DNA of 64,000 nucleotides from Candidatus Poribacteria bacterium (GTDB lineage: Bacteria; Poribacteria; WGA-4E; WGA-3G), in the NCBI GenBank assembly GCA_965202725.1, contig OZ241845.1, forward strand, positions 1,834,621 to 1,898,620. Reading direction: 5' to 3'. Below, piece by piece: positions 25,976 through 42,469 of the stretch. The translations under genes were made by a program, and so were the position numbers. The notes beneath the pieces are model-generated. The model worked only from the letters and a program-made list of their open reading frames with translations, ran no database searches and was not told the DNA's origin. The first letter of the stretch is position 1. Every line of letters starts with the position of its first letter.

Positions 25976-27355
25976 CGAATGTTTTAAACGTTTGCTAAAT
26001 CGTGTGGCGATGTTTTTGCCTCGCTGTGTTACAAGTTTGCCTGAGCGTACGACGTGTGATGTGCCGTTTTTCAGGGCTTGCTGGATGTGGTTTTGTAAGC
26101 CCGCTGCCCGTGAGTCGGGAACGGGTCGGTAGCAGCCGTCGCTATCAAAGATGTGTCCGAGGAATTCAACCCCGGTGTCGAAGTGCGCGATTTGGGTCTT
26201 TTTGGGATTGACAGCTAACTTCAGCCGCCCGAGGTGTTTCTGGGCGTACTCACAGGCGTGCTGTGCTCTGCCTTCACTTCGGCAAAGGAGGAGCAGGTCG
26301 TCTGCGTATCGGACGAGCCGCATTCCTGATCGCGTCATCGCCTTATCGAACGGATGCAGATAGATATTCGCGAACAGGGGCGAGAGGGGCGAGCCTTGGA
26401 GAATTCCGATTTTCCGAGGACGGTTCATCCGCTCCTTCACGATGCTGCCTACAGTCGGTGCAGCCAGTGCAGCGACTACCAACGGGGCAGCGATGAGCAG
26501 GTGCTTCGCTGCAAGCGGTTTCCACAACCGTTTGGCGTTGGCAAGGAGTAGCAGCAGCCCATCTCTCCCTAAGTTCGTCAACAGCTCTTTTCCTGTTGGG
26601 GTTAAGTGACCATCCGTTGTGGCAATTTCGGATGCGTCAACATCCCAGTCGTCTTCTGTAAGTGCGTTCTCATATTCGCTATAATGCCCAGCATCTGGCG
26701 TGCGATGCAGTATTTGGTTAATCACGTTCTCAACACCTTCACCGATATGATGCACCGTGTTTTCGAGATGCGTGCCCCATGTCGGGAATTTGGGGGGTTG
26801 TAGAACGCCGCCCATATCCAGCCACATCTGGATGAGCCGAATAATCGCGGGTTCTTTCAGGGATGCCCGCAGAAACCGCATCAGGATGTGCGTATCCATT
26901 TCATCAAAGAAGTTCTCAATATCGGCATGAACGACCCATTCGTAGCCTTCTGATCGGATCGCGGCGACTTGCGCGATTGCATGCGGCACCCCACGGTTGG
27001 GGCGATACGCGAAACTACACGCCAGAAATTTTGCCTCGTAGATCGGTGAGATGAGATCACAAACGGCACGCTGCACAATCCGATCTTTTAAGGTTAGCAC
27101 TGAGAGTTCTCGCGTACTCCCGTTGGATTTCTGCAGTGTGAATTTTTGAACAGGGAGTGGGTAATACCGCTCTTCGGCAAGCTCACGTGAGAGTTGACGG
27201 AGATGTTTCGCGAGGTTTGCCTCGAACTGTTGAAGGGTGACACCATCGCTACCGGGACCGCTCTTGTTGCTGCGGACCTTCCGCCATGCGGCATGTAGGG
27301 TTTCGGGTTGACAGAGTTGTGTGGAGAGTGAAATACTTGGTGTACAATTAAGCAC
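25973..27355 (-). CDS. Stand-alone CRISPR-associated reverse transcriptase (group-II-intron-like RT)
   Basis: RT domain 0 'LHAAWRKVRSNKSGPGSDGVT', domain 2 'FAYRPNRGVPHA', and YADD box 'LVRYADDLLLLC'. A large insertion separates the fingers from the palm. Start assigned to GTG at 27355 with AGGAGG 6 nt upstream. The ORF tool's extra 11 N-terminal codons would be encoded by the RBS. Confidence 0.85.
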   Translation of the reverse strand: MLNCTPSISLSTQLCQPETLHAAWRKVRSNKSGPGSDGVTLQQFEANLAKHLRQLSRELAEERYYPLPVQKFTLQKSNGSTRELSVLTLKDRIVQRAVCDLISPIYEAKFLACSFAYRPNRGVPHAIAQVAAIRSEGYEWVVHADIENFFDEMDTHILMRFLRASLKEPAIIRLIQMWLDMGGVLQPPKFPTWGTHLENTVHHIGEGVENVINQILHRTPDAGHYSEYENALTEDDWDVDASEIATTDGHLTPTGKELLTNLGRDGLLLLLANAKRLWKPLAAKHLLIAAPLVVAALAAPTVGSIVKERMNRPRKIGILQGSPLSPLFANIYLHPFDKAMTRSGMRLVRYADDLLLLCRSEGRAQHACEYAQKHLGRLKLAVNPKKTQIAHFDTGVEFLGHIFDSDGCYRPVPDSRAAGLQNHIQQALKNGTSHVVRSGKLVTQRGKNIATRFSKRLKHS

Positions 27356-27394
27356 GAATGTCCTCCTGGTTATTACAGGCAACGGCACGGGCTC

Positions 27395-28690
27395 CTGATA
27401 GGAAACTATGCTATAGCAGATGCACAGCCTAACAGGAAAACACGCTACAAAAAGACACAGACACAGCCTAACAAGCTATGCTACAGAAGATGCACAGCCT
27501 AACAGGCTATGCTACGAAATAGGTTATGCTACGAAATAGGTTATGCTATAGAAGTGGCACAGCCTGACAGGCTATGCTACGAAATAGGCTATGGTACAGA
27601 AGAGTGACCTGTGTGAATTAAGTGGAACTGTTTTGGGATGATTGAAAAAGGTACATGACATTGATTAGACGTTTGTATAGAGTCTGCAAGGAATGAAAAG
27701 GATAGTAAAAAATTTAAAAGGATGGTAGCATAGCCTGTTAGGCTGTGCCTTAGGATGTCCTGGTAGCATAGCCTGTTAGGCTGTGCCTTAGTTGTAGCAT
27801 AGTTTGTTGTAGCATAGCCTGTTAGGCTGTGTCTTAGCCCGTCAGCTGAGTGTGTATTTTTTCGTAGCATAGCCTGTTAGGCTGTGTCTTAGGATGTCCT
27901 GGTAGCATAGCCTGTTAGGCTGTGTCTTAGCCCGTCAGCTGAGTGTGTATTTTTTCGTAGCATAGCCTGTTAGGCTGTGTCTTAGGATGTCCTGGTAGCA
28001 TAGCCTGTTAGGCTGTGCCTTAGCCCGTCAGCTGAGTGTGTATTTTTTCGTAGCATAGCCTGTTAGGCTGTGTCTTAGGATGTCCTGGTAGCATAGCCTG
28101 TTAGGCTGTGTCTTAGCCCGTCAGCTGAGTGTGTATTTTTTCGTAGCATAGCCTGTTAGGCTGTGTCTTAGGATGTCCTGGTAGCATAGCCTGTTAGGCT
28201 GTGCCTTAGGATGTCCTGGTAGCATAGCCTGTTAGGCTGTGTCTTAGGATGTCCTGGTAGCATAGCCTGTTAGGCTGTGTCTTAGGATGTCCTGGTAGCA
28301 TAGCCTGTTAGGCTGTGCCTTAGTTGTAGCATAGTTTGTTGTAGCCTGGTTTCCTGTTAGGCTGTGCCTTAGCTCGTCAGCTGAGTGTGTATTTTTTCGT
28401 AGCATAGCCTGTTAGGCTGTGTCTTAGGATGTCCTGGTAGCATAGCCTATTAGGCTGTGCCTTAGTTGTAGCATAGTTTGTTGTAGCATAGCCTGTTAGG
28501 CTGTGCCTTAGGATGTCCTGGTAGCATAGCCTGTTAGGCTGTGTCTTTTTGTAGCCTAGTTTCCTGTCAGGCTCTGCCTTAGCCCGACTGCTTTAACGGA
28601 TCACATCTCATTAAGACAAGTCTTGTGATTAAGACCGTGATGCACAGCCTGACAGGCTATGCTACGAAACAGGCCATGCTACAACAGAGG
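27395..28690. repeat. Large tandem cluster of the dispersed hairpin repeat (about 35 copies) between the RT and SWIM genes
   Basis: 27395-27610 is in CACAGCCTAACAGGCTATGCTAC orientation. 27720-28690 is in the opposite orientation, with perfect 38-bp periodic units 'ggtagcatagcctgttaggctgtgtcttaggatgtcct' and about 80-bp higher-order units. The linkers are themselves repeated, so this is not a CRISPR array. Confidence 0.85.
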
Positions 28691-28693
28691 GCA

Positions 28694-30163
28694 TTAAATG
28701 TCGGCGATGATTCGTAGCAGCAGTCTCTTGCGGGAATGTTGCTTGCGGAAATGCGTCAGATAAGCAACCCACTGATCTTCCTTATTAAGATGCTGATAGA
28801 GTTGCTTCAAGTCAATTAAGTACCGCTGAGCCCTCTCGTAACCCTCTTGCTTTCGAGAGAGGACGATCTGTTCAATGCATTTTTGATAGAGAACGATAGT
28901 CGTCCCTGACACATGATGTCTGAGGACGCTAAACAATTTTTCAGTGAATCCTGACATACGTTTTGCGATGGGACTCTGTAAGAGGTGCCAGTATTCGTCA
29001 ACAGCGAGGGGCAATTCTGCAACGGCTTTCCACGCGGCATCGTCGCGCTGCTGGGTAAAGAGGGCGTGTATGAACCGATAGTTTTCGCCCTCGGCTTGCG
29101 AAAAACGGAGATACTCTTCGGCCCTATTCGCCTGATCATATAAGGCAAGTAGCAGGCGAACATGCGCTTGGCGATCTGGGCTTCCATCGAGGTGTTGTTC
29201 AAGCGTTGTTTGTAAACTCCCTATTTCTTGCGTGGGGCAGAGCTGTTCAAGGAGACGAGTCAGGGGTAACGTAAAAATCGGCTCTCCATCGAAACTGAGC
29301 TGCAATAGCATTCGGCAGTGTTCAAGGGTCTCGGGGGGTTGCTGGACATTCATGGCGACTCGCGCGAACGTTTTTGTGCATTTATTGACGAATCTCGGTA
29401 ATTCACCCCTCTGGAGCGTGTCGGGGGAACGAACAACGGATTGACGGATGAGGGCGTGCAGAATTATCAGCGCGAACTCCGATTCACCCAGCTGCAGAAG
29501 GGACTCGGCATGATGCCGCAGTTTTTCCAGCTGAACGAGAACGTTACGCAGCTGGTGCTGTTCAAGAAAATCCCGTCCAAAAATACGGTCAACGCGTTCA
29601 CTATAGACCTCAACGGTAGCGGGAAGTGTTGCTTTGTGTGCGGTTGTTCTACTGTCTACATCCACCTGATCTAGCATATCTGCATAAGCAGATTGTGATC
29701 CGAAACGGCTTGCATGATCGCAGAAGTCTACATCCACCTGATCTGGCATATCTGCATAAGTCAACACGACTGGCACTAACCTTGGCGTTCGTTTCAACAA
29801 TTCTGAGATAATTTGTAGAAGGCTACGCTTCGGTTTCTCAGCAAGCCTGGTGAGTAAGGCATCCATGTCACAGATTCCCTCTGGTTCATGGGCGTAGGTT
29901 AGCAGGAGCGCGACGATGTGTTTACAATCTCCTCCCCAATCATAAGGGCAGGAACACTCAGCAGCGGCGATCCCTGTCGGCATCAACGCTACAGAAACCT
30001 GATATGGGGCTCGGGCTGTCCCCTGGCACGTTGCGGACAGCGTCCAGCCGTGACAGACCGGGTTACCGATCGCGCCGGCGTGAAAGTATGCTAAGCCTCG
30101 CCTGAAGCTCTGGTCTGTACAGCGAGATCGAACCTGATCGGAGGTTAGGTTTGGAAGTTGCAT
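28694..30163 (-). CDS. SWIM zinc-finger domain protein, translationally coupled to cas2
   Basis: About 490 aa. SWIM CxCxnCxH signature 'CSCPYDWGGDCKHIVALLL' at about residues 73-91. The rest is mostly helical. There is an internal 13-aa tandem duplication 'YADM(P/L)DQVDVD'. The minus-strand context TGA-t-ATG with the cas2 stop shows coupling. Confidence 0.6.
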   Translation of the reverse strand: MQLPNLTSDQVRSRCTDQSFRRGLAYFHAGAIGNPVCHGWTLSATCQGTARAPYQVSVALMPTGIAAAECSCPYDWGGDCKHIVALLLTYAHEPEGICDMDALLTRLAEKPKRSLLQIISELLKRTPRLVPVVLTYADMPDQVDVDFCDHASRFGSQSAYADMLDQVDVDSRTTAHKATLPATVEVYSERVDRIFGRDFLEQHQLRNVLVQLEKLRHHAESLLQLGESEFALIILHALIRQSVVRSPDTLQRGELPRFVNKCTKTFARVAMNVQQPPETLEHCRMLLQLSFDGEPIFTLPLTRLLEQLCPTQEIGSLQTTLEQHLDGSPDRQAHVRLLLALYDQANRAEEYLRFSQAEGENYRFIHALFTQQRDDAAWKAVAELPLAVDEYWHLLQSPIAKRMSGFTEKLFSVLRHHVSGTTIVLYQKCIEQIVLSRKQEGYERAQRYLIDLKQLYQHLNKEDQWVAYLTHFRKQHSRKRLLLRIIADI

Positions 30164-30164
30164 A

Positions 30165-30440
30165 TCAAACGACAATTGTTTGCGGAGCTGAGGTCACTTC
30201 ACCGACAGCAGGCACTTCCACGCGCCCGGCGCAATTACCACAGAACGTGTAGTAGCGAACTGAATCTTCAGCAAGATCAATAACACGCGCAACGGCATTC
30301 TTAAGTGCCTCATACTGTCTCCGGTTGAGATGTGCTTCAAATACGCTGTACTGGACACGCGTGCCGAACCCTTTAAGCACTTTTGCGAGTCGGTTGCGCC
30401 TGTGATCGTCAGGAATATCGTAAGTGATGACATAGAGCAT
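30165..30440 (-). CDS. cas2: CRISPR-associated endoribonuclease Cas2
   Basis: '[35 protein letters not shown]' is a canonical Cas2 N-terminus. Start placed at the second Met (ATG at 30440) with GGAGGT 7 nt upstream. The first Met of the ORF overlaps the promoter -10 element. Confidence 0.85.
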
Positions 30441-30465
30441 CAATTTACCTCCAGTTTGGTTTATA

Positions 30466-30494
30466 AGCATACCCTAAATTTGCACATAAGTCAA
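30466..30494 (-). promoter_or_regulatory. cas2-SWIM operon promoter (TTGACT-N17-TATGCT, minus strand)
   Basis: The minus strand reads aaaaTTGACT tatgtgcaaatttaggg TATGCT. About 20 nt further is GGAGGT, then the cas2 ATG. It shares about 40 nt with the array 1 leader promoter region. Confidence 0.55.
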
Positions 30495-30519: not shown

Positions 30520-31045
30520 CCTAAGCGAGAAGGAAGGTATAATCTAAGATATGCTGTTTATTTCTGTCATCATTCACGTCAAGAGATGTGATACCCGTAG
30601 GGGCGAGGTTTCCTCGCCCGATAGAGGAGACGGGTTGGGAAACCCAACCCCTACGAGAAGTAAATATCGCTCCGCTGTTGTAGCATGGTTTCCTGTCAGG
30701 CTGTGCCATCTGTATTGCTCTTCCGTAGCATAGCCTGTTAGGCTGTGTTAGCTTGTAGCATATCCTGTTGTAGCATAGCCTGTTAGGCTGTGTTAGCTTG
30801 TAGCATGGTTTCCTGTCAGGCTGTGTTAGCTTGTAGCATATCCTGTTGTAGCATGGTCTCCTGTTAGGCTGTGCCATCTGTATTGCTCTTCCGTAGCATA
30901 GTTTCCTGTCAGGCCGTGTTAGCTTGTAGCATGGTTTCCTGTTAGGCTGTGTTAGCTTGTAGCATAGTTTCCTGTCAGGCTGTGCAATCTTACCCCCACA
31001 ACCCCACCCAAGCAAGGGCGGGGGAGAGTGGCTACAAAAAGGCAT
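30520..31045. repeat. Repeat cluster between cas2 and the decarboxylase gene
   Basis: About ten copies of GTAGCAT(A/G)G(CC/TTTCC)TGT(T/C)AGGC(T/C)GTG, then a GC-rich hairpin element at about 30994-31030. The 174-aa ORF here is a repeat translation. Confidence 0.8.
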
Positions 31046-31100: not shown

Positions 31101-32732
31101 GTGAACTATCGCGATATTTTAAAAGACATTCGCCAGGCTTTTCCGCAACCTGTAGCAGACCCTATCCATAATTCCTATTTCGTGCATTCTATCATGCGCG
31201 CCTTGGACCAGGTCGATGAACTCAAAACACATCTGCCAATGCTCGGCAGCGTCATCCCTGCTGATTTTGCAGCAGCGCGCCAGACAACCCTACCTGAAAC
31301 GATGTCCTCCGTTAAGGATGTCACAACCGACCTCGTGAGCTACCTCCGAGGTATGACGATCTTCGGACACCCGCGCACGCAACAGAACGTTGTTGCCCCA
31401 CCAACAATTCCAAGCCTGATCGGGGTGCTCCTCGCGTCTCTCTACAATCCAAACCTCGCCTGGGATGAATACAGTCGACTAGTGGCATTGGCTGAGGTTG
31501 AGGTCATCGGGATGACCTCAAAAATGGTGGGATACGATCCAGAGGCATCAGGCGGCGTATTTACTTTCGGCGGCACGGGAACAACCTTCTACGGGGTAAA
31601 ACTTGGCTTGGAAAAAGCTGACCCAGGCACGGTCGAAAACGGCACCTCTGAAGACGTAGTTGTGTTTGTGTCAGATACAGGCCACTATTGCGCCACGAAC
31701 ATCGTCGGTTGGCTCGGCATCGGAACAAAGAATCTCATCACGATCCCAACGACATTTGAAAACGAAATGGATCTCGAGGTACTGGCACAAGAAACCCGCA
31801 AGGCACTGGAAAACGGAAAAAAGATCGCCGCTATTATTGCTACATTAGGCACCACGGACGCCTTTGGATTGGACGACTTAGCGCGCATCGTGGCGTTACG
31901 GGATAAACTTGTCGAGGACTTCAAACTGGACTATCAACCACACGTTCACGCAGACGCGGTTATCGGATGGGCATGGTCGGTCTTTAACGCTTACGATATT
32001 GAGGAGAACCCCCTAGCGTTTCGCCCGCGCACCCTCCGGGCGTTAGCAGGCACACGCCGGCGGATACGGCATTTAGCCCTCGCCGATTCAATCGGCATTG
32101 ACTTTCACAAAACCGGGTTTGCACCCTACATCTCGAGTCTTCTCCTCGTCAAAAACCGAACGGATCTAGATTTGGTGAAACGGCACCCCGAACAGATGCC
32201 CTATCTTTATCACTTCGGAGATTACCGGCCCGGTATGTACACACTTGAGACTTCAAGGGCAGGAACGGGGGTTCTCGCTGCCCTTGCGAACCTCCGACTC
32301 TTTGGCGAGCAGGGATTGCAAACGATTCTTGGACATATCGTTGAAATGGCCCAGCTCCTGCGCGAACACCTTGGCGGACACGCAGCCACAACCGTGGTCA
32401 ACCGAGAGAACTTCGGAACCGTCACCCTGTTCCGCGCCTATCCAGACGGCGTGGATACTTTCCCAATTCAAAATCAGGAATTTAAAGACCCTGCATATCG
32501 CGACAGCTTGCGCAAACACAACGCGTATAACCAAAAGATTTTTGAATATGTCCAAGCGGAAGCCATGGAGGGCAGGGGGGTGGTTATCTCCACAACGGAC
32601 TGTTACCGATACACTGCTTACGGTGAACCGATTGTCGCGCTAAAGTCATATATCCTCTCCCCGTTCGTCGATGAAGTGGACGTGGAGACTGTGGTCACCA
32701 AGGTGCTGGAAGCGCGGGAGAAGGTTGATTAA
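31101..32732 (+). CDS. PLP-dependent group II amino-acid decarboxylase (tyrosine/glutamate/diaminobutyrate decarboxylase family)
   Basis: 543 aa. The 'DSIGIDFHKTGFAPY' block matches the S-x-HK PLP-lysine motif of group II decarboxylases. Substrate is unknown. Confidence 0.7.
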   Translation: MNYRDILKDIRQAFPQPVADPIHNSYFVHSIMRALDQVDELKTHLPMLGSVIPADFAAARQTTLPETMSSVKDVTTDLVSYLRGMTIFGHPRTQQNVVAPPTIPSLIGVLLASLYNPNLAWDEYSRLVALAEVEVIGMTSKMVGYDPEASGGVFTFGGTGTTFYGVKLGLEKADPGTVENGTSEDVVVFVSDTGHYCATNIVGWLGIGTKNLITIPTTFENEMDLEVLAQETRKALENGKKIAAIIATLGTTDAFGLDDLARIVALRDKLVEDFKLDYQPHVHADAVIGWAWSVFNAYDIEENPLAFRPRTLRALAGTRRRIRHLALADSIGIDFHKTGFAPYISSLLLVKNRTDLDLVKRHPEQMPYLYHFGDYRPGMYTLETSRAGTGVLAALANLRLFGEQGLQTILGHIVEMAQLLREHLGGHAATTVVNRENFGTVTLFRAYPDGVDTFPIQNQEFKDPAYRDSLRKHNAYNQKIFEYVQAEAMEGRGVVISTTDCYRYTAYGEPIVALKSYILSPFVDEVDVETVVTKVLEAREKVD

Positions 32733-32776: not shown

Positions 32777-32986
32777 ATGCCTGAATTACCTGAATTAATG
32801 AGCTCACCACCATTTTTACTAATTGCAGCCGTATTCGCCATATCTATTATCCTCGGGATCCTCAAGCACGCATGGCGTTTCTTGATCTGGATTGCTGGTA
32901 TTGTTGCTGTTCTCCTCTGGCTGGGTGTTACGAATGTACCCCAGATGAGAGACTGGTTTGAGAGACTTCTGAAAATAGTGGAGTGA
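32777..32986 (+). CDS. Possible small two-helix membrane protein (69 aa)
   Basis: Two hydrophobic segments. AGGAAA about 7 nt upstream of the ATG. It overlaps the 3' end of cas6 on the opposite strand, so it may be spurious. Confidence 0.2.
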   Translation: MPELPELMSSPPFLLIAAVFAISIILGILKHAWRFLIWIAGIVAVLLWLGVTNVPQMRDWFERLLKIVE

Positions 32987-33935
32987 TACGGTACTGCCCA
33001 TGTCCAAACGCTGTGTGGTGCCCGATGTGTAGATACTCGCCGAGATAGATAAAGGGTAGGAACGGTTCTAACGCACCGGTAAAGCGAACCTTCCCGATAA
33101 ACCCACCCATCGGAACGGATTTCTCAGCTCGATAGGAGTAGCGATCTGCCCGTATCCAATAAAAATTGGATACGTCCGTTACGGCCTTCGCGGTGTCAAT
33201 TAGGGCCCGGGCATCTACCGCTAAGTCTTCACCACAATGGAAATAGCTCAGGAATCGGATACGCCGGAGTAGGTTGCGGATGAGGTGTTCAAAGGTCAGC
33301 TTGCTTGTCCACTTTCCTTCCACTTTGATGCTGGTGGGTGTGAGAAACTCCAACGCAATCTCATCAATTCCGTTCGGCACGCTACGCATGACGTCGTCCC
33401 GCCCAAGAATCTGACCGTCGTCTGTGAGTAGTTCGGTTGCTGCTGTGTAAATTGTTCGGATGTCTTGGCTGCCCCGTGCGGGAAGGGTTTCTACCTTATC
33501 AAGACGGCACTGTCCGCGTTTCCCACGGATGCCGACCCGCCGCCTACCTATCTCGCGGAAGGTGAAGACCAGCCATGGTAATAGGGTGATTGTCTCGCCG
33601 ATGAGGGTCAGCGTGCAGGTGAAGGTATCGCCGGGGGCATAGTCCAGTTGCTGAGTGTGTGGCGGTTCAAGAATAAACGGGTGCGGCGCGAAGGGCTGTG
33701 CGCGTAGCATTGGACTGTCATCGGGGACAGGCGTTTCAAAGCATTTAGAGTAGACGCACCGGGCTGGGTGCTGGCACTGTGTGTGGCATCGCGTTTCGCC
33801 GCTGATGCATGTTATGTCGCGCAGCAGGTATCCCAACCGGCTGCGGAAGATGTTGCCTTTGTATGCCGGCATCTTTAGCGGTTCTCGGACGGTGTATGTG
33901 AATCGGTAGCGTGCGAATCTGAAGTTTTGGAGCAT
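32928..33935 (-). CDS. cas6: CRISPR repeat endoribonuclease Cas6
   Basis: C-terminal glycine-rich loop 'IGHHTAFGHGQYRI' matches the Cas6 G-x-x-T-x-x-G-x-G signature. The N-terminus 'MLQNFRFARYRFTY' is typical of Cas6. At 335 aa it is longer than most Cas6 proteins. Confidence 0.75.
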   Translation of the reverse strand: MLQNFRFARYRFTYTVREPLKMPAYKGNIFRSRLGYLLRDITCISGETRCHTQCQHPARCVYSKCFETPVPDDSPMLRAQPFAPHPFILEPPHTQQLDYAPGDTFTCTLTLIGETITLLPWLVFTFREIGRRRVGIRGKRGQCRLDKVETLPARGSQDIRTIYTAATELLTDDGQILGRDDVMRSVPNGIDEIALEFLTPTSIKVEGKWTSKLTFEHLIRNLLRRIRFLSYFHCGEDLAVDARALIDTAKAVTDVSNFYWIRADRYSYRAEKSVPMGGFIGKVRFTGALEPFLPFIYLGEYLHIGHHTAFGHGQYRITPLFSEVSQTSLSSGVHS

Positions 33936-33993: not shown

Positions 33994-35148
33994 CTATGGG
34001 CTTTTGTACACAACGTTACGATTGCCGTAGTGCCTCAGTGTCAAACCGCCAGGAGCCCTTTCACAACTGACCCGAATACCCCGGGCAATACGGAAGGTGT
34101 AGATATTATCATGATTTGCAAGTTGTTGAAACTTGAGGCCAGAAACTCGGGCATTCAGTTGGGTTATATTCCCATTACTCTCTTCCAGCGCTACAGCTAT
34201 CTTCGCCAAGGTTTCCTGAAGGTCTTCCCATTGATCGTTGTTTAACTTCTGACAGTCGTTGGTGAAACTTTGCTGATACACTAACCGAGGGAATTTCAAC
34301 AGTTCTCCAGATAACAGATCTGATTTCGATCGCTGCCAGAGCAACTCCCCCCACGTCGATAATCCCGCATAAGTCTGGCCATTTTCTTCTACGAATTCCA
34401 GAAGCGTTTCTGAAATACCACTAAGCTCGTCAATCGGATATAACTTTCCTGCAGCCATCAATGCAAATTCCGTCAGATTTTCTTCAATAACAGCGGTATT
34501 AATCTGTATTGGCAGGCTCGGGATCTTGATTAACTCAGCATTTTCTGACTCAAAGATATATATCACTTCATCGGCGTAAAATGCCCCGAAGGTATTCATG
34601 TAACCTTGCAGACTCTTGAAGCCCCCGACAAGGTTGAAAATCACGCGATAGCCGCCCCCCTGTAGCGGCGGCACATTGTCCTGTCGCCGCGGCACAGTGT
34701 CCTCAAGCCACTCAATCAATTTCTTTGTCCCCGTGGTGAAGGACTCCGGATCTTGTGTTGAAAGCCGATCAGGAATGAAAACGTTCACGTTAAAGCCTTG
34801 TCCCTCGAGGAAATCCTTAATCAATTCACCAGTTTGTCGTCCTTGTGCGGTATCGGTGCAGATGAGATGGTGTTCGTCATTGCTATCCGTGGGCAGTTGG
34901 CCGCCATAGATGCCGTAAATGCCGTTCAATTCAGCACTGATCCGACGATTAGCCTGGGGATTGTTATCCATAAGCCGTTCGAGTGCTCGGGCCGCAAGTG
35001 TATTAATCACCTCTTTCGCATTGGGTGTTAATTCGTCTTGCGTGAGATTTGCCGAATCTCGCAGCGTTCCGAACCAAGTTCCCTCGTCTTCCCTATCAAT
35101 AAGATTTGTCAGGATACTGGTTCCAACAGTTGATAAAATAAAACGCAT
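33994..35148 (-). CDS. CARF-RelE fusion effector (Cami1-like cyclic-oligoadenylate-activated mRNA interferase, predicted)
   Basis: N-terminal CARF signature 'MRFILSTVGTSILTN'. The C-terminal roughly 90 aa, 'IYTFRIARGIRVSCERAPGGLTLRHYGNRNVVYK', aligns by eye with the RelE/ParE toxin core (YRIxYxxD...LxVLxxGHRxxxY). Confidence 0.65.
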   Translation of the reverse strand: MRFILSTVGTSILTNLIDREDEGTWFGTLRDSANLTQDELTPNAKEVINTLAARALERLMDNNPQANRRISAELNGIYGIYGGQLPTDSNDEHHLICTDTAQGRQTGELIKDFLEGQGFNVNVFIPDRLSTQDPESFTTGTKKLIEWLEDTVPRRQDNVPPLQGGGYRVIFNLVGGFKSLQGYMNTFGAFYADEVIYIFESENAELIKIPSLPIQINTAVIEENLTEFALMAAGKLYPIDELSGISETLLEFVEENGQTYAGLSTWGELLWQRSKSDLLSGELLKFPRLVYQQSFTNDCQKLNNDQWEDLQETLAKIAVALEESNGNITQLNARVSGLKFQQLANHDNIYTFRIARGIRVSCERAPGGLTLRHYGNRNVVYKSP

Positions 35149-35293: not shown

Positions 35294-36391
35294 TCACGCC
35301 CAACCGAAGGCAGCGCGTATGTATCGATGAAATGTTTGCCGGAGGTCATACCACGTATTTTTCCCCCAGATTTCTAAAGACTGGCTTGAACGCCCTGTTT
35401 CTTCTCTCAATTCGGCTTGGATTAGCTGCTGCGCCTCTTGCGAAGCCCCACACAACACAATCGCACGTGCCTCAACACCGCCGAGTTGCCGCATCCGTAA
35501 AATAGCCTCCATCCCTTTTTCCTTCACCCGGTCATGTTTATAAGCAAGGGTACACGAAACGACAACGACTTGGTAACCCAGGACTGCAACTACGTCAAGT
35601 TCAAAAGGCTTCACACTTGCGTCTGATAGATCGGATCGTCGGACATATACCTTGTGGAAAAGTCTATAGTTGTTCCGATCCGGGCACTGTCGGGACACAT
35701 CTCCCAAGGCATCCTGAAAGGCAGCATACGCCCCGTATTCAAGAAGTTCCGGTGTAGAACACCTACCCCTATTGACTACTGCACGGCCTTTCGCCAATTG
35801 CTCTCGGCTGAGCGTGTTGGGGGCAGGACAACTTCTCGTTTGATTGTTCCCTAATTCATCCCGATATTCATAAAAAAATGGGCCGAGTTCAAAACCGTTG
35901 AGATCAGCAATTCGCAGCAAAGAAGGATCTACTCCCTTGCGAGTATCTGAGACTAAGACATTCCCATTCCGGTCTATGAGGGTCGCCCCCGCGTCGGCAC
36001 GTGGATCCAGATAAGAGGTCTCTACATCCATACCTTGTGATGGAAGGGAAACCTTAAGATTTTCTGCCGCAGCGACGGTTTCAACGCACATCACCTTCGT
36101 GCCACCAGTATAATGTACGTGAATGCAAGTCGTATTGTCTGGTAAATTGTGCACGAGGCTCCGGGTTATGTCGTTGCGTACAGTAGCCGGATTTCCTGAC
36201 ACTGTTTCGACCGTATCAATAACAGGGACATCGCCACTATATTTCAGCAGTCGATCCCGTTCGGGTCTTGTTTCTTTCGTATGCACGAGTCGGACATAGA
36301 TAGGGGCTGGCAGTTTATCTTTCAAATGATGGAGTGCCACCCACACAGGTAGGGGATTGGTGCCAACTGTTAGCATGAGCAGCGTTCCCAT
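35294..36391 (-). CDS. CARF-domain effector with uncharacterised C-terminal domain (possibly restriction-endonuclease-like / Can2-like)
   Basis: N-terminal CARF signature 'MLTVGTNPLPVWVAL'. The C-terminal roughly 170 aa contain 'FELDVVAVLGYQVVVVSCTLAYK', a candidate PD-(D/E)xK-like strand pair. The assignment is weak. Confidence 0.5.
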   Translation of the reverse strand: MGTLLMLTVGTNPLPVWVALHHLKDKLPAPIYVRLVHTKETRPERDRLLKYSGDVPVIDTVETVSGNPATVRNDITRSLVHNLPDNTTCIHVHYTGGTKVMCVETVAAAENLKVSLPSQGMDVETSYLDPRADAGATLIDRNGNVLVSDTRKGVDPSLLRIADLNGFELGPFFYEYRDELGNNQTRSCPAPNTLSREQLAKGRAVVNRGRCSTPELLEYGAYAAFQDALGDVSRQCPDRNNYRLFHKVYVRRSDLSDASVKPFELDVVAVLGYQVVVVSCTLAYKHDRVKEKGMEAILRMRQLGGVEARAIVLCGASQEAQQLIQAELREETGRSSQSLEIWGKNTWYDLRQTFHRYIRAAFGWA

Positions 36392-36469: not shown

Positions 36470-36526
36470 CTCTTAGACGGTGTATGTAAATCGGTAGCGT
36501 GCGAATCTGAAGTTTTGAAGCATCAT
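36470..36526 (-). pseudogene. Second duplicated cas6 5' fragment (17 codons then stop)
   Basis: Encodes 'MMLQNFRFARYRFTYTV*'. It overlaps the csx1 stop in an ATGA context and matches the cas6 5' end for about 55 nt. Confidence 0.5.
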
Positions 36527-37974
36527 GGAAGTTGTGCGATAAATTTATGTTGCTCATTGAAAGAAACAGCATCAATACAAGCAAGCTCTTGCGCCATCTT
36601 GAAGCGTTTTTCAACAGTTGACTTAAAAGCGTTGAATTCTTTGCTACTGATTATGCGCATACCATGTGCGTAAATACTTTGATTCCTCGTTCCCACTTGG
36701 TTTTGAAACCTTCCCCAGTCCAAGTCTTGAACAATTTCATCTTCCAGGGCGTGTAATAAGAGATATCCGTCAATCAACCCAATGGGGGCAGGAAGAACAG
36801 ACCTATCTGTGCGTTGGAAAACTTCTTTCAATTTAGCCTTATACCGACTGAAAATTTCAGCCTTATCAATACCAGAGTAATCCGGGTTACGAGTGTCAAT
36901 CTTGTACCCTGCAAGACGGTGTTGTTCTATCCACTCAAGAAGCCGATAGAGAATCAGACAGGCAGTGTCGTGTTTTCCTTGTGCTTCTCGACGAAGTGCA
37001 TTGTGATAGAGCATAAACGCAAAGTGAAATCCATTAGGCGCATTAAGTGCTTCATGTTCGGTTTTGAGAAACGTCAATAAACGGTTCAATGCTTCCGTTT
37101 GTTTGTCAAGACGGGACCTTAAATCTTGGAGACGACTTAGCCCTTCTAACATCGAAAATTGACAAAGAAGTTCCACCAATCGAACTAAATAAGTTCTGGA
37201 CTTGCCAATATCAAGATTATCCCAAGCCTCATAGGCTGTGCAGAGGTATTCATAAGCTTCGTAAATTTTGACTTTATTGGTATCACCAACTTTTGATTTG
37301 AGTTGATCAAAAATACGCTGCGCTCCAGCGTAATCGTGCTCGTTGTATAGGTTTCTTGCCTTCTCAACCTCTAAATCACCAAACACGGTGTAAGGGTTAT
37401 CTAAGAGACTGAGATATTCAGAGCCCGGTTCAGGTTTCTGTAGTACAAATGAGGTGTTGTCCACATAATAAATATCGGCACCAAGTGCAGCACCTGCCAT
37501 CGCTGCGCCACCAACCATTGACTTTTTGCCTCCTGTGATATCTACGGCAATATTCGTTGGTTTGCCCCACTCAGTGTAAAGTTCCATGATTGTCTTGTAT
37601 ACTTCCACAGTGCTGCTTCCATCAATTCTGCGCACGGCAAGCTGGTCGAGCTGTAACTTCGTTTCGTCCTGAATTCTTTGCAGAAATCCGGCTGTTTCTT
37701 CTGTGTGAAGTAAAGCAACCCATTCAGGTCTTATCGCGAGGATAGAAAGAATTAGCGGTTCAGGGGAGAAACCAACAGTCAAAATGAGAACATCATACTC
37801 TTTATTGGGGCAATTTGCGGGTTTTTTGAGAAAGACCTCCTTGACAAGTGGGAAAATCTGTTCGTCATAGAAAGTGCCTGCGGTTCTTCTGGCCTCGTGA
37901 GAAGTACGGTCCATCTCCTGCCATTCTGAGAACAGTGCATTAAGTTTGGTTTCGAGGGTTTTGTTTTTCGACAT
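36523..37974 (-). CDS. csx1: Csx1-family CARF-HEPN ribonuclease
   Basis: CARF signature 'VLILTVGFSPEPLILSI', and C-terminal HEPN R-x4-6-H motif 'RNQSIYAHG' about 50 aa from the end. A length of 483 aa is typical of Csx1. Confidence 0.8.
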   Translation of the reverse strand: MSKNKTLETKLNALFSEWQEMDRTSHEARRTAGTFYDEQIFPLVKEVFLKKPANCPNKEYDVLILTVGFSPEPLILSILAIRPEWVALLHTEETAGFLQRIQDETKLQLDQLAVRRIDGSSTVEVYKTIMELYTEWGKPTNIAVDITGGKKSMVGGAAMAGAALGADIYYVDNTSFVLQKPEPGSEYLSLLDNPYTVFGDLEVEKARNLYNEHDYAGAQRIFDQLKSKVGDTNKVKIYEAYEYLCTAYEAWDNLDIGKSRTYLVRLVELLCQFSMLEGLSRLQDLRSRLDKQTEALNRLLTFLKTEHEALNAPNGFHFAFMLYHNALRREAQGKHDTACLILYRLLEWIEQHRLAGYKIDTRNPDYSGIDKAEIFSRYKAKLKEVFQRTDRSVLPAPIGLIDGYLLLHALEDEIVQDLDWGRFQNQVGTRNQSIYAHGMRIISSKEFNAFKSTVEKRFKMAQELACIDAVSFNEQHKFIAQLP

Positions 37975-38169: not shown

Positions 38170-38802
38170 CTAAGGAATAACTTGGGTCACATGACCGTTT
38201 GCATTGACTCCTTGAACTCTCAATTTAACCTGTGCTTCAGCATTCCAAGGGTAATAAGAACGTTCAAAAACAAGTTCCTCATTATTTTTAGTTTGTAACT
38301 GCACCGTTACCTTAAACCCGTCGTTCTTCAGAATAGCCGCTTTGACCCTGTCCCCGACCTTGATTTTCGGTTTCTCTGGTTCTTTTGGCGGTTGTGGTGT
38401 TTGCGTGTGAGGCATTTCCAGTGTTTGCTGTGGTGCTTGTGGTACTAGTGGATGGTGTTGTTCCTTGACAGCCCGTTCTGGCTCAACGCAATAGTATCGC
38501 ATCAACCGTAGACTCCAACCGAGAATCGTCAGGATTTCACCCGTATCACTGATACTATGAAGGTGCGTTTCACAGGCTTCTTGGATGTTTTGGTAATATT
38601 CCTGCGTCTGGCTGCTCCGAATGAGGGCATTTTGCGTATTTGCCAATCGATGAACGAGGTCCATGAGCCTATCCTTAGCGTTGTCTTCCCCTTTGTAGCG
38701 TCTCATGAAAGCAACTACTTTACCAAATTCATTAGGGTCCGTGTCCCAGTCAACCAAATCAAATGCGATGTCGTGGGCGATAGACCAATGTTTTTTATCC
38801 AT
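38170..38802 (-). CDS. Uncharacterised type III-linked protein: helical N-domain, Pro-rich linker, small beta-barrel-like C-domain
   Basis: 210 aa. The N-terminal roughly 125 aa are helical. The linker is 'PQAPQQTLEMPHTQTPQPPKEPEKPK'. The C-terminus 'IKVGDRVKAAILKNDGFKVTVQL...' looks KOW/OB/SH3-like. It sits between the last Cas7 gene and csx1. Confidence 0.4.
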   Translation of the reverse strand: MDKKHWSIAHDIAFDLVDWDTDPNEFGKVVAFMRRYKGEDNAKDRLMDLVHRLANTQNALIRSSQTQEYYQNIQEACETHLHSISDTGEILTILGWSLRLMRYYCVEPERAVKEQHHPLVPQAPQQTLEMPHTQTPQPPKEPEKPKIKVGDRVKAAILKNDGFKVTVQLQTKNNEELVFERSYYPWNAEAQVKLRVQGVNANGHVTQVIP

Positions 38803-38814
38803 GGGATACCTCCA

Positions 38815-39732
38815 TCAATAAAGTCCAGATGGGCAGTTTCTATCATTCGGGTAGCGGAGAATTTCAGCAAGCTTTTTCAATAGATCTATTTTGATGAGAG
38901 ATCCCATTGCTGCTTCTATGCATTTGCTTTTCCATTTCCTCAATTGTGCACCTGTCTTTGCCGATTTCGGCTGAACGTTCCAGTCTAAATACTTTTGCTG
39001 GTTTTGTTTTTCAACCTGAACCTCATCAATATCAATATCGATTGAACCGAAGCATACAGGCTTCGCACCGCCAATTTTGAGTTTAAATGGATAATCAGAA
39101 TTGTGTCCCAACGCCGTTAAAAACAAACCCCACTCTGCTTGGGTTAGGTTGTCAACCTGCACGACAAACTGAAATTTTGAATCTTCCTCCCATGCTTCAA
39201 CGGGGGTTTTACCCGTAGCCACCTCCCCGTGCTTGTAAAATTTTCGTCCTTGCTGTCGACGCGGCTTATAAAGCTCAGGGACATATTTCGTTACAATTTG
39301 TCCTTTAATTAGTGGAGCATCCTGTATTGCAATATTGGATTGAAAACCCATAGCCCCAAACATACGGCAGGAAACACACAGTTTACCTCCTGGACGACAT
39401 TCCGATGAACGGGTATTACAGATGCAGCTTTCCGAAATTGCCTCAACAACGCTCCGAATAGCACCTTTAAGTGAGCTACCGGGGATAAGGGCATTTCTAT
39501 CCGTTCGGACTGCTGTTTTGATAAGTTCTTCATTCTGATCGATATCAATAACGCCGCTGCCAATATAGATGGGGGATAATGCCTTTATTCTTCCAATGAC
39601 CTTACCTGTTGTATATGTATTTGTCTGGCGGTAGCTATCATGTCCGATTGGAGATTCTCTATTAACCCCCTGTGGAAGCGGAACAAAGTCGAAAGGTTTT
39701 AGTGCAGCCTGTTTGGGTTGAGATTGACCCAT
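38815..39732 (-). CDS. RAMP (Cas7 group, Csm5/Cmr6-like) subunit
   Basis: 'ALIPGSSLKGAIRSVVEAIS' G-rich RAMP loop, a C4 zinc-finger-like 'CICN...C...CVSC', and C-terminal 'GGAKPVCFGSIDI'. Confidence 0.7.
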   Translation of the reverse strand: MGQSQPKQAALKPFDFVPLPQGVNRESPIGHDSYRQTNTYTTGKVIGRIKALSPIYIGSGVIDIDQNEELIKTAVRTDRNALIPGSSLKGAIRSVVEAISESCICNTRSSECRPGGKLCVSCRMFGAMGFQSNIAIQDAPLIKGQIVTKYVPELYKPRRQQGRKFYKHGEVATGKTPVEAWEEDSKFQFVVQVDNLTQAEWGLFLTALGHNSDYPFKLKIGGAKPVCFGSIDIDIDEVQVEKQNQQKYLDWNVQPKSAKTGAQLRKWKSKCIEAAMGSLIKIDLLKKLAEILRYPNDRNCPSGLY

Positions 39733-39744
39733 GATTCTTGCTCC

Positions 39745-40230
39745 TTACTTTCTTACAAAAGCCATGTATCGCGTAAAACGAATAGTATGAGAAATGCTTT
39801 CTTTATACTGAATTATATTGATTTTTGGAGATTGGCACCATTTCATTGGATATTTAAGTTTTCGCGGGATTCGCGTATCTCGCCATGGTTTAGTTTCACC
39901 ACCACCGAGTAAGGATACTGCCTGTGGTTCGCTTGTTGCCCATTCACCCAATGTGGTAAATTCTGCTGGCAAATCTCCCTCAGACAACCAGAGTAGTGCG
40001 TAACCGATTGACTGCTTTCGCCAGCGGAGTTCCCCGTTTTTGTCAAATATTCTGCCCCATGTATACTCTTCTATTTCTTTTGCGTCTGGTGTTCCTTTTT
40101 TCCAATCGGTGATTTTATCCGGACTTTGGAGTAAGTAATAGGAAGGATCACCGAATTCTAGATCTTTAATTCGTTGTGTAAATTCCAAAATATTAGACGC
40201 TTGTGCGGTTGCAACAATCGCTTTTCCCAC
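39745..40230 (-). CDS. Small uncharacterised protein (161 aa) at the position occupied by Csx19 in III-D loci
   Basis: No motifs recognised. Trp-rich. Embedded between two Cas7 genes with 1-nt and 13-nt gaps. Confidence 0.35.
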   Translation of the reverse strand: MGKAIVATAQASNILEFTQRIKDLEFGDPSYYLLQSPDKITDWKKGTPDAKEIEEYTWGRIFDKNGELRWRKQSIGYALLWLSEGDLPAEFTTLGEWATSEPQAVSLLGGGETKPWRDTRIPRKLKYPMKWCQSPKINIIQYKESISHTIRFTRYMAFVRK

Positions 40231-41151
40231 TTACTCACCCCCTTCGACCATTTCGCGCCATGAACAGACACAGCCTTGCCATAGTGCGATGATTTCGTCC
40301 GGTGATTTAAGGTTTAGTGTAGCACCTAGTCCGTAATCATCTTGTTGTGCTTGTACACTTACATCGACGGAATCAGGATTAGGAAATCCATAATTGCATG
40401 CGTTATCCACAAGTTGTCCTGCGCCCACAACGATCTTGTCTTTAAATGATGTAGTTTGTCCTACAAATTTCAATTGCTTATTTTCAACAATCGCTGTTGG
40501 GTATCGAATTTCAACGCTGCTGACTTTCATGTTTACCTGTCCTAAGCCGCGTGATTTTGCGTAACCGAGACCTACCCGTTGTTCGTCAAAGTCACGGACG
40601 GCAAGTGCAATAAGTCCAAGCTGAGCTGTTGTAAAGTTCTTCAGAGTGATTTTCGTTCTAAACTCGCCTGAAATGATAACTTCAAAGTTGAACGGACCAA
40701 AGGCAACAGAACCAAAGAGCCTGTTGATCGCAACACCATTACGTTCTTCTCGACGAATTCCTTTCGGATCGATAGGATATGCATCGGCAATACGCGCATG
40801 CGCTGAAATTTTTGTACTGCCAAAGATTTGGCAAACCGTGCAGGTATTTTGGTAAAGGGCGGCACTGTCTTCTGCTTTTAAATTTCTACATAGCGAGTCA
40901 TCTTTCAACGGATCACATGTGGTGACATTCCCTCCGAGTGTCCGCACAATCCGCTCACAATGTGCACGAATCGCCCCTTTCAGTGAGGAGCCCGGAAGAT
41001 AAACGCTTCTATCCCCAGCATGATAGGTTTCAACGAACTCCATATCTGGTTTGGTCGGGTCTGCCCCTTGGTCGCTCGCTTTGATGAGCAGCGGTCCGAC
41101 AGGAGAGATCACTAATTCAATGATGGCTTGGTTGACAATCCGTTTGTGCAT
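40231..41151 (-). CDS. RAMP Cas7 (Csm3/Cmr4-like) subunit
   Basis: 'VYLPGSSLKGAIRAH', a zinc-finger-like 'C...C...CTVCQIFGS', and a G-rich loop 'GYAKSRGLGQV'. Confidence 0.75.
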   Translation of the reverse strand: MHKRIVNQAIIELVISPVGPLLIKASDQGADPTKPDMEFVETYHAGDRSVYLPGSSLKGAIRAHCERIVRTLGGNVTTCDPLKDDSLCRNLKAEDSAALYQNTCTVCQIFGSTKISAHARIADAYPIDPKGIRREERNGVAINRLFGSVAFGPFNFEVIISGEFRTKITLKNFTTAQLGLIALAVRDFDEQRVGLGYAKSRGLGQVNMKVSSVEIRYPTAIVENKQLKFVGQTTSFKDKIVVGAGQLVDNACNYGFPNPDSVDVSVQAQQDDYGLGATLNLKSPDEIIALWQGCVCSWREMVEGGE

Positions 41152-41987
41152 TAACTCCCCTCCGATTGCTGTTTAACTTTGTCGTGGAACGCATCTACCC
41201 ACGATTCCCAATTAGCATTGACTCCCATACAGTCTTTGGTCAGATAGTCTATGATATTAGAACCATCAATATAGGCTGTGGTATTAAGTGATAATTCGAT
41301 TTGTCCCAACCCGCGGCTACTTCCGCCGCCAATGGTCAATTCACCCTTCTCAAAAGCAGAAAGACCGAGGTAAAGCATACCGAGCTGCCAATCTGCAGCG
41401 TTGTCAACAATTGCATGAAAATTGAATACAACTTCTGCCGGAACGACTTCAAAATCGTAGAGTTTGCCATCTGAGGCTGTTTCTGTGTCCCGATCAATTG
41501 CAACACCGTCGCGTTGCTGATATTGATCGAACCAGAGATCCTGTTGCACATGCAAATCACGAATTTGCAACTTAGAAGCATACCACAACGATCCGAAGAG
41601 TTGACATACCCAACAAGTATACCCAAGAATTTTTTTGCTAAATTCTTGGTCTGTCCATTTATGCCGTTCCCGAGGATTTTTAAGGCCTCCCTCTCGTGAC
41701 TTTCGCAAACTTTGCATATCACTGCGGTTGATACACTGTCCGCCCTCATCAATAGGGTTACAAACCATGTGCTTGTCGTCTTTAAAGCTTCTCATTATAC
41801 TTTCAATGTAAGACCGGAGAACACCTTTGAAACTTGAGCCAGGTATGTAAGGGCGGTTTGCTGCGTCCCGCACGACAGGAAGATCGGAACTAATAGGTGA
41901 TGTGGAACGCCCCGCACCGATGCGAATTGCAGTTAACGTTTCAACCTCGCCCTCCAAAATGAGCCGGGATTGGAATTTATCAAACAT
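41151..41987 (-). CDS. csm3: RAMP Cas7 (Csm3-like backbone subunit)
   Basis: 'PYIPGSSFKGVLRSYIE', 'CWVCQLFGS', and 'GGGSSRGLGQIEL'. A conserved Asp ('SSDLPV') lies in the loop where the Csm3/Cmr4 catalytic Asp is found. Confidence 0.8.
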   Translation of the reverse strand: MFDKFQSRLILEGEVETLTAIRIGAGRSTSPISSDLPVVRDAANRPYIPGSSFKGVLRSYIESIMRSFKDDKHMVCNPIDEGGQCINRSDMQSLRKSREGGLKNPRERHKWTDQEFSKKILGYTCWVCQLFGSLWYASKLQIRDLHVQQDLWFDQYQQRDGVAIDRDTETASDGKLYDFEVVPAEVVFNFHAIVDNAADWQLGMLYLGLSAFEKGELTIGGGSSRGLGQIELSLNTTAYIDGSNIIDYLTKDCMGVNANWESWVDAFHDKVKQQSEGS

Positions 41988-42469
41988 TAGTTGTTACTCC
42001 CTTTGTATGCCAGAAAAGCTTGATACCGAGCAAGATTGCCTAAGTAAAGCTGCATCAAACGAACGTGAACGCTTTGAATATCTTCTGTCGTTGGATCTTC
42101 ACAGATAGATTGGACAAGATATTCAGCATTTTGAGCTAAGGCCTCAATCTCTTGAACTAATGCCACAGCGAAACTTTCTTTTTTACTTGCCTTGTCACCT
42201 TTACTTCCCTTGTACTTCCACATCGGATTTGAACCCTTCCGACCGAGTTGATAACGGATGTAATTCTTGGTTATTTCGATACCACTTCCAGATTCTGTGG
42301 CAACATTTAGCACATTGCGAAGTGGCGATTTCTGTGGAACATTGCCAAGATTATACCTATCCGCGAATTTCCGCATCTCCGGTATAAGTGTTTCCATCTG
42401 TTTACCTATTTTCTGCTCAACCTTTAAATTTTTCTGTTTTTCAGTGATAGCTCGTTCTGTTTGACTCAT
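41987..42469 (-). CDS. Type III small subunit (Cas11; Csm2/Cmr5-like)
   Basis: 160-aa helical protein, basic, located directly after the Cas7-Cas5 gene with overlapping stop and start. Assigned by size, position and composition only. Confidence 0.5.
   Translation of the reverse strand: MSQTERAITEKQKNLKVEQKIGKQMETLIPEMRKFADRYNLGNVPQKSPLRNVLNVATESGSGIEITKNYIRYQLGRKGSNPMWKYKGSKGDKASKKESFAVALVQEIEALAQNAEYLVQSICEDPTTEDIQSVHVRLMQLYLGNLARYQAFLAYKGSNN

Follow-up and report, generated by a model that had tools for sequence, protein, structure and literature searches.

A CARF-RelE gene in a type III-D CRISPR locus

The 64,000-nucleotide (nt) stretch of Candidatus Poribacteria DNA analysed here (contig OZ241845.1; hereafter the window) carries a type III-D CRISPR locus, and the subject of this report is the second-to-last gene of a minus-strand run that leads from Cas10 through genes for a Csx1/Csm6-type effector and Can2 to the gene in question and Cas6 (Table 1). 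Its product is composed of an N-terminal CARF sensor, a winged helix (wHTH) and a C-terminal domain with the fold of RelE toxins. An earlier inspection of the letters alone (the sequence-only reading) had placed a CARF-RelE fusion with an ILSTVGTS signature at this position; indeed, the gene coincides exactly with an open reading frame (ORF) whose product begins with MRFILSTVGTS, while NIYTFRIARGIRVSCERAPGGLTLRHYGNRNVVYK occupies amino acids (aa) 348-382. That the ORF represents a genuine gene, as opposed to a chance product, follows from the 1643 homologs found at E ≤ 1e-5 in a search of 5.8 billion proteins, the closest of which is 75% identical over the full length, and from an identical protein that is already on record on an NCBI contig.

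An AlphaFold2 (AF2) model of the whole protein, built from 116 relatives, reached a mean predicted local distance difference test score (pLDDT) of 87 and a predicted template modelling score (pTM) of 0.79, and three parts are visible in it. The isoelectric points (pI) of these parts differ, being 4.6 for the CARF domain, 4.05 for the wHTH and 9.3 for the RelE-fold domain (9.67 for E. coli RelE), and a basic domain within an otherwise acidic protein is what would be expected of a module that binds RNA or the ribosome.

Table 1. Features of the CRISPR locus, in window coordinates, with the domains and predicted functional residues of the CARF-RelE protein
Feature	Coordinates	Strand	Basis or details
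CRISPR array	19491-23962	+	59 copies of 37-nt repeat GTTTCAATTCCCTTCGAGCGGGAAAGTCTATTCAAAG
Cas1	24764-25756	-	Pfam
Stand-alone reverse transcriptase (RVT_1, 471 aa)	25973-27388	-	Pfam; beside Cas1, unfused
SWIM-domain protein	28694-30175	-	Pfam
Cas2	30165-30470	-	Pfam
Cas6 crRNA-processing endoribonuclease	32928-33935	-	Pfam CRISPR_Cas6, E = 2.5e-19; directly downstream of the CARF-RelE gene
CARF-wHTH-RelE-fold gene (Cami1-type effector, predicted)	33994-35148	-	ORF, ATG start, 384 aa
RelE-fold nuclease domain (predicted)	33997-34302	-	aa 283-384; pLDDT >90 in whole AF2 model
Candidate active-site residues (RelE-fold domain)			Y350, T351, R353, R359, R372, R377, Y381
Winged-helix (wHTH) linker domain	34303-34503	-	aa 216-282
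CARF sensor domain, CARF7/Cas_APE2256 type, Rossmann-like	34504-35148	-	aa 1-215
Predicted cA4-binding / ring-nuclease residues (CARF domain)			S11, N15, T98, T100, K178; alignment and conservation
Neighbouring effector 1: Can2 (CARF-PD-(D/E)xK nuclease), clade-1-like	35294-36391	-	PADLOC CARF4--CARF_PDDEXK, E = 1.4e-39
Neighbouring effector 2: Csx1/Csm6-type CARF-HEPN RNase	36523-37974	-	TIGR02710, E = 2.9e-50; Pfam Csm6 HEPN and 6H
Type III-D interference operon	38170-46888	-	NCBIfam matches
Cas10	44309-46888	-	cyclase motif SIGGDD (GGDD) intact

The fold of the C-terminal domain

When modelled alone, the C-terminal domain reached a pLDDT of 96 and adopted the topology β-α-α-α-β-β-β-α. In a Foldseek comparison of this isolated model with the PDB, RelE, YafQ, YoeB, HigB and ParE toxins made up 49 of the 50 best matches, led by RelE of M. 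jannaschii (E = 1.9e-5, template modelling (TM) scores of 0.64 and 0.74, root-mean-square deviation (rmsd) of 3.0). This is followed by V. cholerae YafQ (rmsd 2.2) and then by YoeB and HigB, including the 70S-bound structures 4W4G and 4YPB, with ParE lower in the list. Phage proteins annotated as “cytotoxic translational repressor” and “ParE-like toxin” match the fold as well. Both the fold and the topology are shared with RelE, YafQ, YoeB and HigB (TM 0.56-0.65 on the query and 0.62-0.74 on the target), and with YafQ the domain has in addition the N-terminal motif L-x-Y-x-x-x-F-x-x-D in common. The assignment of the C-terminus to RelE/ParE, which the sequence-only reading had made by eye and had proposed to compare with RelE in an AlphaFold model, is thus borne out at the fold level, where the models identify the domain clearly as RelE, but it does not hold at the level of profile searches, as discussed below.

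The whole model finds the structure 8PHJ, in which cyclic tetra-adenylate (cA4)-bound Cami1 is seen with the 70S ribosome, as its best match in the PDB (E = 1.3e-15 over 407 columns); 8PHJ and the apo form 8PHB head the list, followed by ring nucleases and then by free RelE and YafQ.

The remaining entry among the 50 best matches of the isolated domain, at rank 37, is the insecticidal toxin Txp40 of Xenorhabdus (PDB 7XBJ), whose C-terminal part (residues 316-353) is also weakly matched by the RelE-like domain profile (E = 0.0099), which hints at a RelE-like module in this toxin.

The CARF sensor and the winged helix

Pfam PF09651 (Cas_APE2256) matches aa 68-211 with an E-value of 6e-29 and the top PADLOC matches are CARF7 profiles throughout, so that the assignment of the N-terminal domain to CARF is solid at the sequence level. 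Over the CARF domain and the wHTH, the closest solved proteins by sequence are Sso1393 (3QYF, E = 1e-15) and Sis0811 (7PQ2, E = 1e-13), followed by the 406-aa chains of 8PHB and 8PHJ (E = 5e-11), and all of these alignments end by aa ~270. In the alignment with Sis0811, S11 and K178 correspond to S12 and K169, respectively, both of which are essential for cleavage of cA4 by Sis0811 (PMC8643638). S11, N15, T100 and K178 are invariant in the 116 relatives, while T98 is kept in at least 90%. The conservation of these residues, together with neighbouring effectors that are of cA4-type families, indirectly supports binding of cA4 by the CARF domain, which probably also has a ring-nuclease activity that would limit the response. 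For the characterised Cami1, which is activated by cA4, a ring-nuclease activity has likewise been reported alongside the effector activity.

The wHTH is seen in the AF2 model as H-H-H-β-β-H at aa 219-278. Aligned by sequence, Sis0811 and Sso1393, both of them CARF-wHTH proteins, can be followed into it (to aa ~266), and the Foldseek alignment covers 285-297 columns against these 275-aa proteins. The protein has kept the catalytic Ser and Lys of such Crn1-type ring nucleases and several of the residues that contact cA4; however, Sso1393 and Sis0811 end after the wHTH, whereas here a conserved RelE-fold effector domain of 100 aa is added, so that the protein does not belong to the stand-alone ring nucleases.

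The candidate active site

Residues of the RelE-fold domain were mapped to RelE by means of a weak alignment together with the secondary-structure register, the RelE side being an alignment of database proteins named “mRNA interferase RelE” (PF05016). In the statistically weak hhalign register, Y350-T351-F352-R353 lies on Y51-K52-I53-K54 of RelE and G357-I358-R359 on G59-Y60-R61, and R377 and Y381 would further correspond to R81 and Y87 of the E. coli protein. Like RelE, the domain is basic, and the weak alignment would put Arg where RelE has K54, R61 and R81, and Tyr where it has Y87. In E. coli RelE, Lys52 or Lys54 has been proposed as the general base and Arg81 as the general acid, while Tyr87 is described as stacking on the substrate or positioning it; which residue serves as general acid varies between toxins, being His83 in YoeB and His87 in YafQ (PMC5027501).

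Among close relatives R353 is kept in 115 of 116 and R359 in all 116, and near-invariance extends to C362, L369, Y374 and G375. Across 135 family sequences that remain after clustering at 50%, the site of the mainstream reads G350-H351-R353-R359-C362-R372-H377-N381 and is His-based, resembling YoeB, YafQ and HigB. The clade to which the window protein belongs has instead Thr, Lys or Arg at position 351 and often Tyr at 381, and the combination Y-T-R-R-C-R-R-Y occurs only once among the 116 aligned sequences, namely in the window protein itself. Cys362, which is located in the RVSC motif of strand β3 (codon 34063-34065) and is conserved in 130 of the 135 family members, aligns with Tyr64 of E. 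coli RelE and has no counterpart among the known catalytic residues of RelE.

A subclade of CARF-RelE proteins carries a short Cys/His-rich C-terminal tail of the form SHAPxCxHC (e.g. ending in HYGQHQYVDNVSHAPWCNHC), which could be a metal-binding add-on; the window protein lacks this tail.

Relation to Cami1 and to other RelE-type toxins

Cami1 stands for CRISPR-associated mRNA interferase 1 and was reportedly described by Mogila and co-workers in Science in 2023 (382:1036), with 8PHB as the apo structure and 8PHJ as the cA4-bound structure on the 70S ribosome. The PADLOC profile PDLC01934 (“CARF7--CARF_RelE”) aligns with aa 2-377 of the window protein at profile positions 3-357 of 359 (E = 2.5e-123). 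By contrast, relatives of the solved Cami1, which were recovered with the partial 8PHB sequence as query (the best being 92% identical, from a Chromatiaceae bacterium), match a different profile, PDLC01939 (“CARF7--CARF_RelE_like”), with E-values of 1e-147 to 1e-172, and to this profile the window protein aligns with its CARF part only (aa 37-224, E = 8e-8). A broader profile, PDLC01033 (“CARF_RelE”), covers both proteins and reaches aa 333 in the window protein.

In a survey of type III systems, Cami1 is described as a dimeric protein of the CARF-RelE type that is activated by cA4 and cleaves mRNA in the A-site; it occurs in 135 of the 1113 loci surveyed, and in 54 of these together with Csx1 (PMC11229360). 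Among the entries of the “cami1” table of this survey are cyanobacterial III-D proteins, 366-377 aa in length, in which Cas_APE2256 spans aa ~50-210 (PMC11229360). Some of these, e.g. that of Anabaena cylindrica (Cas_APE2256 at aa 72-208), have the layout of the window protein. The identification as Cami1 made in the sequence-only reading is therefore upheld by the PADLOC label, by this listing of the same architecture and by the best fold matches, 8PHJ and 8PHB. The family is already classified in PADLOC-DB, and the window protein is a diverged member of the Cami1 kind and not a new kind.

The likeness to the solved Cami1 comprises the order CARF7, winged helix and RelE-fold, the length (384 aa compared with 406 aa, of which 372-384 residues are resolved), the best whole-protein fold match, the detectable homology over CARF and wHTH, and the occurrence in type III CRISPR loci, often with Csx1. 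The two differ in that their identity is only 18% and their PADLOC profiles are distinct (“RelE” here, “RelE_like” there). Moreover, the solved type continues past the DH-EY segment with a C-terminal extension that the window protein lacks, and the solved Cami1 is absent from the 50 best fold matches of the isolated C-terminal domain, where the canonical toxins are present. Compared with RelE-type toxins, the window protein has a sensor fused in cis where those have an antitoxin gene, and it has Thr at the Lys52 position and the conserved Cys362. The gaps flanking the gene, 58 and 145 bp in length, leave no room for a small adjacent antitoxin gene, the neighbours being Cas6 and Can2, and the RelE-fold domain would be expected to be controlled in cis through the CARF domain.

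A profile of the C-terminal domain yielded 183 matches among 1.84 billion representatives (50% clustering), nearly all of them fused at the C-terminus of proteins of ~370-390 aa, or fragments; the 150 matches that were listed are essentially the same fusion or its fragments. In the genome scan, relatives of the protein were found in cyanobacteria (40-48% identity) and in metagenome-assembled genomes of Ca. Poribacteria and Latescibacterota (54-74%). The nearest relatives and the named members of the Cas1 cluster suggest that the host is probably a sponge symbiont resembling Ca. Poribacteria. A free-standing toxin form of the domain was considered and rejected, since the candidate of ~100 aa that was examined proved to be the end piece of a disrupted gene. 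It lies in a type III-B (Cmr) locus (L082:2696-4309), where the CARF-RelE gene is apparently split into ORFs of 78, 118 and 102 aa; short “stand-alone” matches to the domain can accordingly be pieces of pseudogenes. A further architecture was seen in a protein of 1149 aa (P0278, L083:6001-9450) that combines a caspase (Peptidase_C14), an nSTAND1 NTPase, a CARF (Cas_APE2256) domain and the RelE-like domain of the present family. It is surrounded by other caspase/CHAT-STAND-TPR genes and no Cas Pfam family lies within 6 kb, most of the downstream genes being without a recorded match.

The type III-D system and its other effectors

The interference operon comprises Cas10, Csx10, a gene of 160 aa, two Csx7 genes, Csx19, a RAMP gene and a gene of 210 aa. 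The type III-D locus is complete, and its Cas10, with the cyclase motif intact, is predicted to make cyclic oligoadenylate (cOA). Cas10 proteins of type III-D seldom have an HD nuclease domain and thus presumably act mainly via cOA signalling (PMC11229360), and in the Cas10 of the window no HD was seen in the N-terminal region. Neither Pfam nor NCBIfam scans revealed a separate ring nuclease among the genes of the locus.

As the sequence-only reading had noted, the CARF-RelE gene stands beside two other CARF effectors on the same strand, and both are intact as judged by their motifs. Can2 aligns with TbrCan2 (8Q3Y) with an E-value of 5.9e-20 and has kept FELD (ExD) and the downstream Lys. A loss of the ExK motif was considered for this protein and rejected, since the motif of clade-1 Can2 is E-ExD-SxTTS-K (PMC10783487) and is retained except for the last two residues of SxTTS. 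The Csx1/Csm6-type effector aligns with Csm6 of T. thermophilus (5FSH, E = 1.1e-33), with its HEPN sequence RNQSIYAH on RNSALLVH, so that RNxxxxxH is kept. The Csx1, Can2 and Cami1 families are all described as activated by cA4, and loci with three effectors are called rare in the same survey, the sole triple mentioned being Csx1, Can1-2 and Cam1 (PMC11229360).

The genome scan retrieved 80 related loci, and the gene order varies among them. III-D genes are found within 10 kb of the CARF-RelE relative in 27-42 of them, and Can2 accompanies it in 6, while the Csx1 homolog is present within 10 kb in none. Cas6 adjoins the CARF-RelE gene in 12 related loci.

The genes of 210 aa (38170-38802) and 160 aa (41987-42469) of the operon, both on the minus strand, have no significant Pfam or NCBIfam match, and yet both have been conserved across 27-29 related loci; the 160-aa gene occupies the position expected of a Cas11-like small subunit. 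The run of cas genes is broken between cas2 and cas6 by a plus-strand gene for a pyridoxal phosphate (PLP)-dependent decarboxylase (31101-32732), which is followed by a hydrophobic-looking ORF of 69 aa (32777-32986).

A probable cA4-gated mRNA interferase and its alternatives

From the architecture, fold, conserved residues and genomic context described above we infer the ligand, the ribosome dependence and the nuclease activity of the protein: with a probability of about 0.75, the gene encodes a Cami1-type mRNA interferase that is gated by cA4, limits its own response and serves as an ancillary effector of the type III-D system. This supports the sequence-only reading overall, with cA4 gating and ribosome dependence as its inferred parts. 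In the proposed pathway, phage RNA would be bound by the Csx10/Csx7/Cas10 complex, upon which the Cas10 cyclase would make cA4. A dimer of CARF7 domains would then bind the messenger, as the conserved ligand-contacting residues suggest, and a conformational change passed on through the winged helix would, by analogy with the solved Cami1, free the basic RelE-fold domain. Placed in the ribosomal A-site, this domain would cleave the mRNA, for which its fold and R353, R359, R377 and Y381 speak, so that translation and growth would be arrested. Such a dependence on the ribosome, and a capture by the ribosomal stalk as in Cami1, would be in keeping with the fold matches to 8PHJ and to the 70S-bound HigB structures. 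The CARF domain probably degrades cA4 as well, via S11 and K178, which would make the response self-limiting. The same signal would also fire Can2, an ssDNA/ssRNA nuclease, and the Csx1/Csm6-type RNase, giving three routes of damage under one messenger.

Several results weigh against this reading. The Pfam check for RelE/ParE that the sequence-only reading had proposed failed to find a match, and at the HMM level this is formally one of the outcomes that it had named as refuting: aa 230-384 are without any Pfam or NCBIfam match, the whole protein does not match the RelE/ParE toxin families PF05016 and PF15738 at E ≤ 1, and when 27 isolated C-terminal domains of the family were compared with Pfam and NCBIfam, a single one touched YafQ_toxin (E = 0.018, below the gathering score). 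Hidden Markov model (HMM) profiles of the domain, built from 27 and 62 sequences, gave only marginal matches to PDB sequences (Txp40, E = 0.01; YafQ, E = 0.78), and hhalign gave no significant match to the RelE alignment (pairwise E-values of 0.067 and 0.006, probability ≤6%); the weak paths run in the topologically correct register, with β1-α1-α2 on the same elements and the β2-β3 hairpin on the RelE hairpin. Nor is any similarity seen by hhalign between the C-terminal profiles of the PDLC01934 and PDLC01939 types (probability 0.2%). Because the nuclease domains lack profile-profile similarity and belong to different PADLOC subfamilies, the biochemistry of the solved Cami1 is not transferable by orthology, and a search of the literature found no characterised member of, or published experiment on, the PDLC01934 subfamily. 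Finally, the position that corresponds to Lys52 of RelE is His in 119 of the 135 family representatives and Thr351 in the window protein. The catalytic Arg and Tyr positions of the sequence-only reading thus have candidate counterparts in the weak alignment, but the Lys52 position is occupied by Thr.

It is improbable that the protein serves mainly as a ring nuclease of the Crn1 type (CARF7-wHTH), removing cA4 and so countering the damage done by Can2 and Csx1, the RelE-fold domain being a catalytically weakened appendage. Such a role would fit the invariant Ser/Lys pair, the Thr in place of the usual His351, the absence of a separate ring nuclease among the scanned genes of the locus and the sequence of the CARF and wHTH domains, which is closer to Sso1393 and Sis0811 than to Cami1. 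However, the C-terminal domain is clearly constrained, as its near-invariant residues in 116 relatives indicate, is found almost solely fused to CARF7 among the 183 representatives, and is strongly basic, as expected for binding to RNA or the ribosome; furthermore, both activities coexist in the characterised Cami1, so that the two readings are not exclusive. There is a similarly small chance that the RelE-fold domain acts on a target other than that of Cami1 and RelE, either as a ribosome-independent RNase or as a ParE-like poison of, e.g., gyrase. The RelE/ParE fold serves both mRNases and gyrase poisons, with ParE structures among the fold matches, and a different target would be in line with the missing sequence link to the nuclease domain of the solved Cami1 and with an active-site composition that differs greatly between family members and is unique to the window protein. 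Yet RelE, YafQ, YoeB and HigB stand above ParE in rank, TM score and rmsd, Arg or His is conserved at the positions used for RNA catalysis by RelE-type mRNases, and the whole three-domain fold aligns with ribosome-bound Cami1.

Highly improbable is a role as a cA4-responsive transcription regulator that acts via the winged helix, like Csa3, although a wHTH does follow the CARF domain and Csa3 is among the weaker fold matches. These matches are poor (TM 0.25, rmsd 16-17), the very acidic wHTH is unfavourable for DNA binding, docking of DNA to the homologous wHTH of Sis0811 is unsupported (PMC8643638), and the conserved basic RelE-fold domain would be left unexplained.

A tentative and rather doubtful extension of the reading as a Cami1-type mRNA interferase concerns the origin of its nuclease domain. 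The RelE-fold domain of the PDLC01934 type, found in cyanobacteria, Poribacteria and Latescibacterota, might be a separate acquisition, or have split very long ago from the nuclease of the solved Cami1, having a fold nearer to canonical RelE/YafQ and a mainstream site of the His-His type (H351/H377), which a clade of sponge symbionts including the window protein would have rebuilt to a RelE-like Tyr/Arg/Arg/Tyr site. If so, the rebuilt site could alter the A-site codon preference or the engagement of the ribosome relative to the characterised Cami1.

CARF-RelE effectors are among the commonest ancillary proteins of type III systems, while the only solved structures found (8PHB and 8PHJ) belong to the other subfamily, and the window protein represents a large uncharacterised one. 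Since its nuclease domain has no sequence link to that of the solved Cami1, the mechanism of the PDLC01934 type needs a test of its own. The locus also offers a natural set of three effectors, a Csx1/Csm6-type RNase, Can2 and a Cami1-type mRNase, all expected to respond to cA4, so that the sharing of a messenger among several effectors could reasonably be studied in it. The general understanding of type III signalling is unchanged by these results.

The CRISPR array, adaptation genes and dispersed repeats

The repeat of the CRISPR array has 59 matches in the window compared with 0 expected by chance, and the array is also detected by Tandem Repeats Finder (TRF). The 33-nt tandem repeats at 30678-30999 were considered as another CRISPR array and rejected, since they have no spacers. 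They belong to a dispersed repeat of 31-38 nt, GTAGCATAGCCTGTTAGGCTGTG, which has the palindromic core AGCCTGTTAGGCT and occurs in tandem clusters; the other clusters lie at 24492-24691, 27462-28562 and 48333-48480, so that clusters flank the cas1, reverse transcriptase and cas2 genes and are found near rpoD, and one of them produces a spurious ORF of 174 aa (30521-31045).

The position of the reverse transcriptase beside Cas1 suggests that spacers of the 59-repeat array are acquired from RNA. The SWIM zinc-finger gene, which encodes 493 aa, shares 11 nt with the end of cas2, and such a cas2-SWIM pair, adjacent or overlapping, recurs in seven related type III loci of the Poribacteria type with 48-56% identity; the SWIM protein may be an unrecognised partner of the adaptation module.

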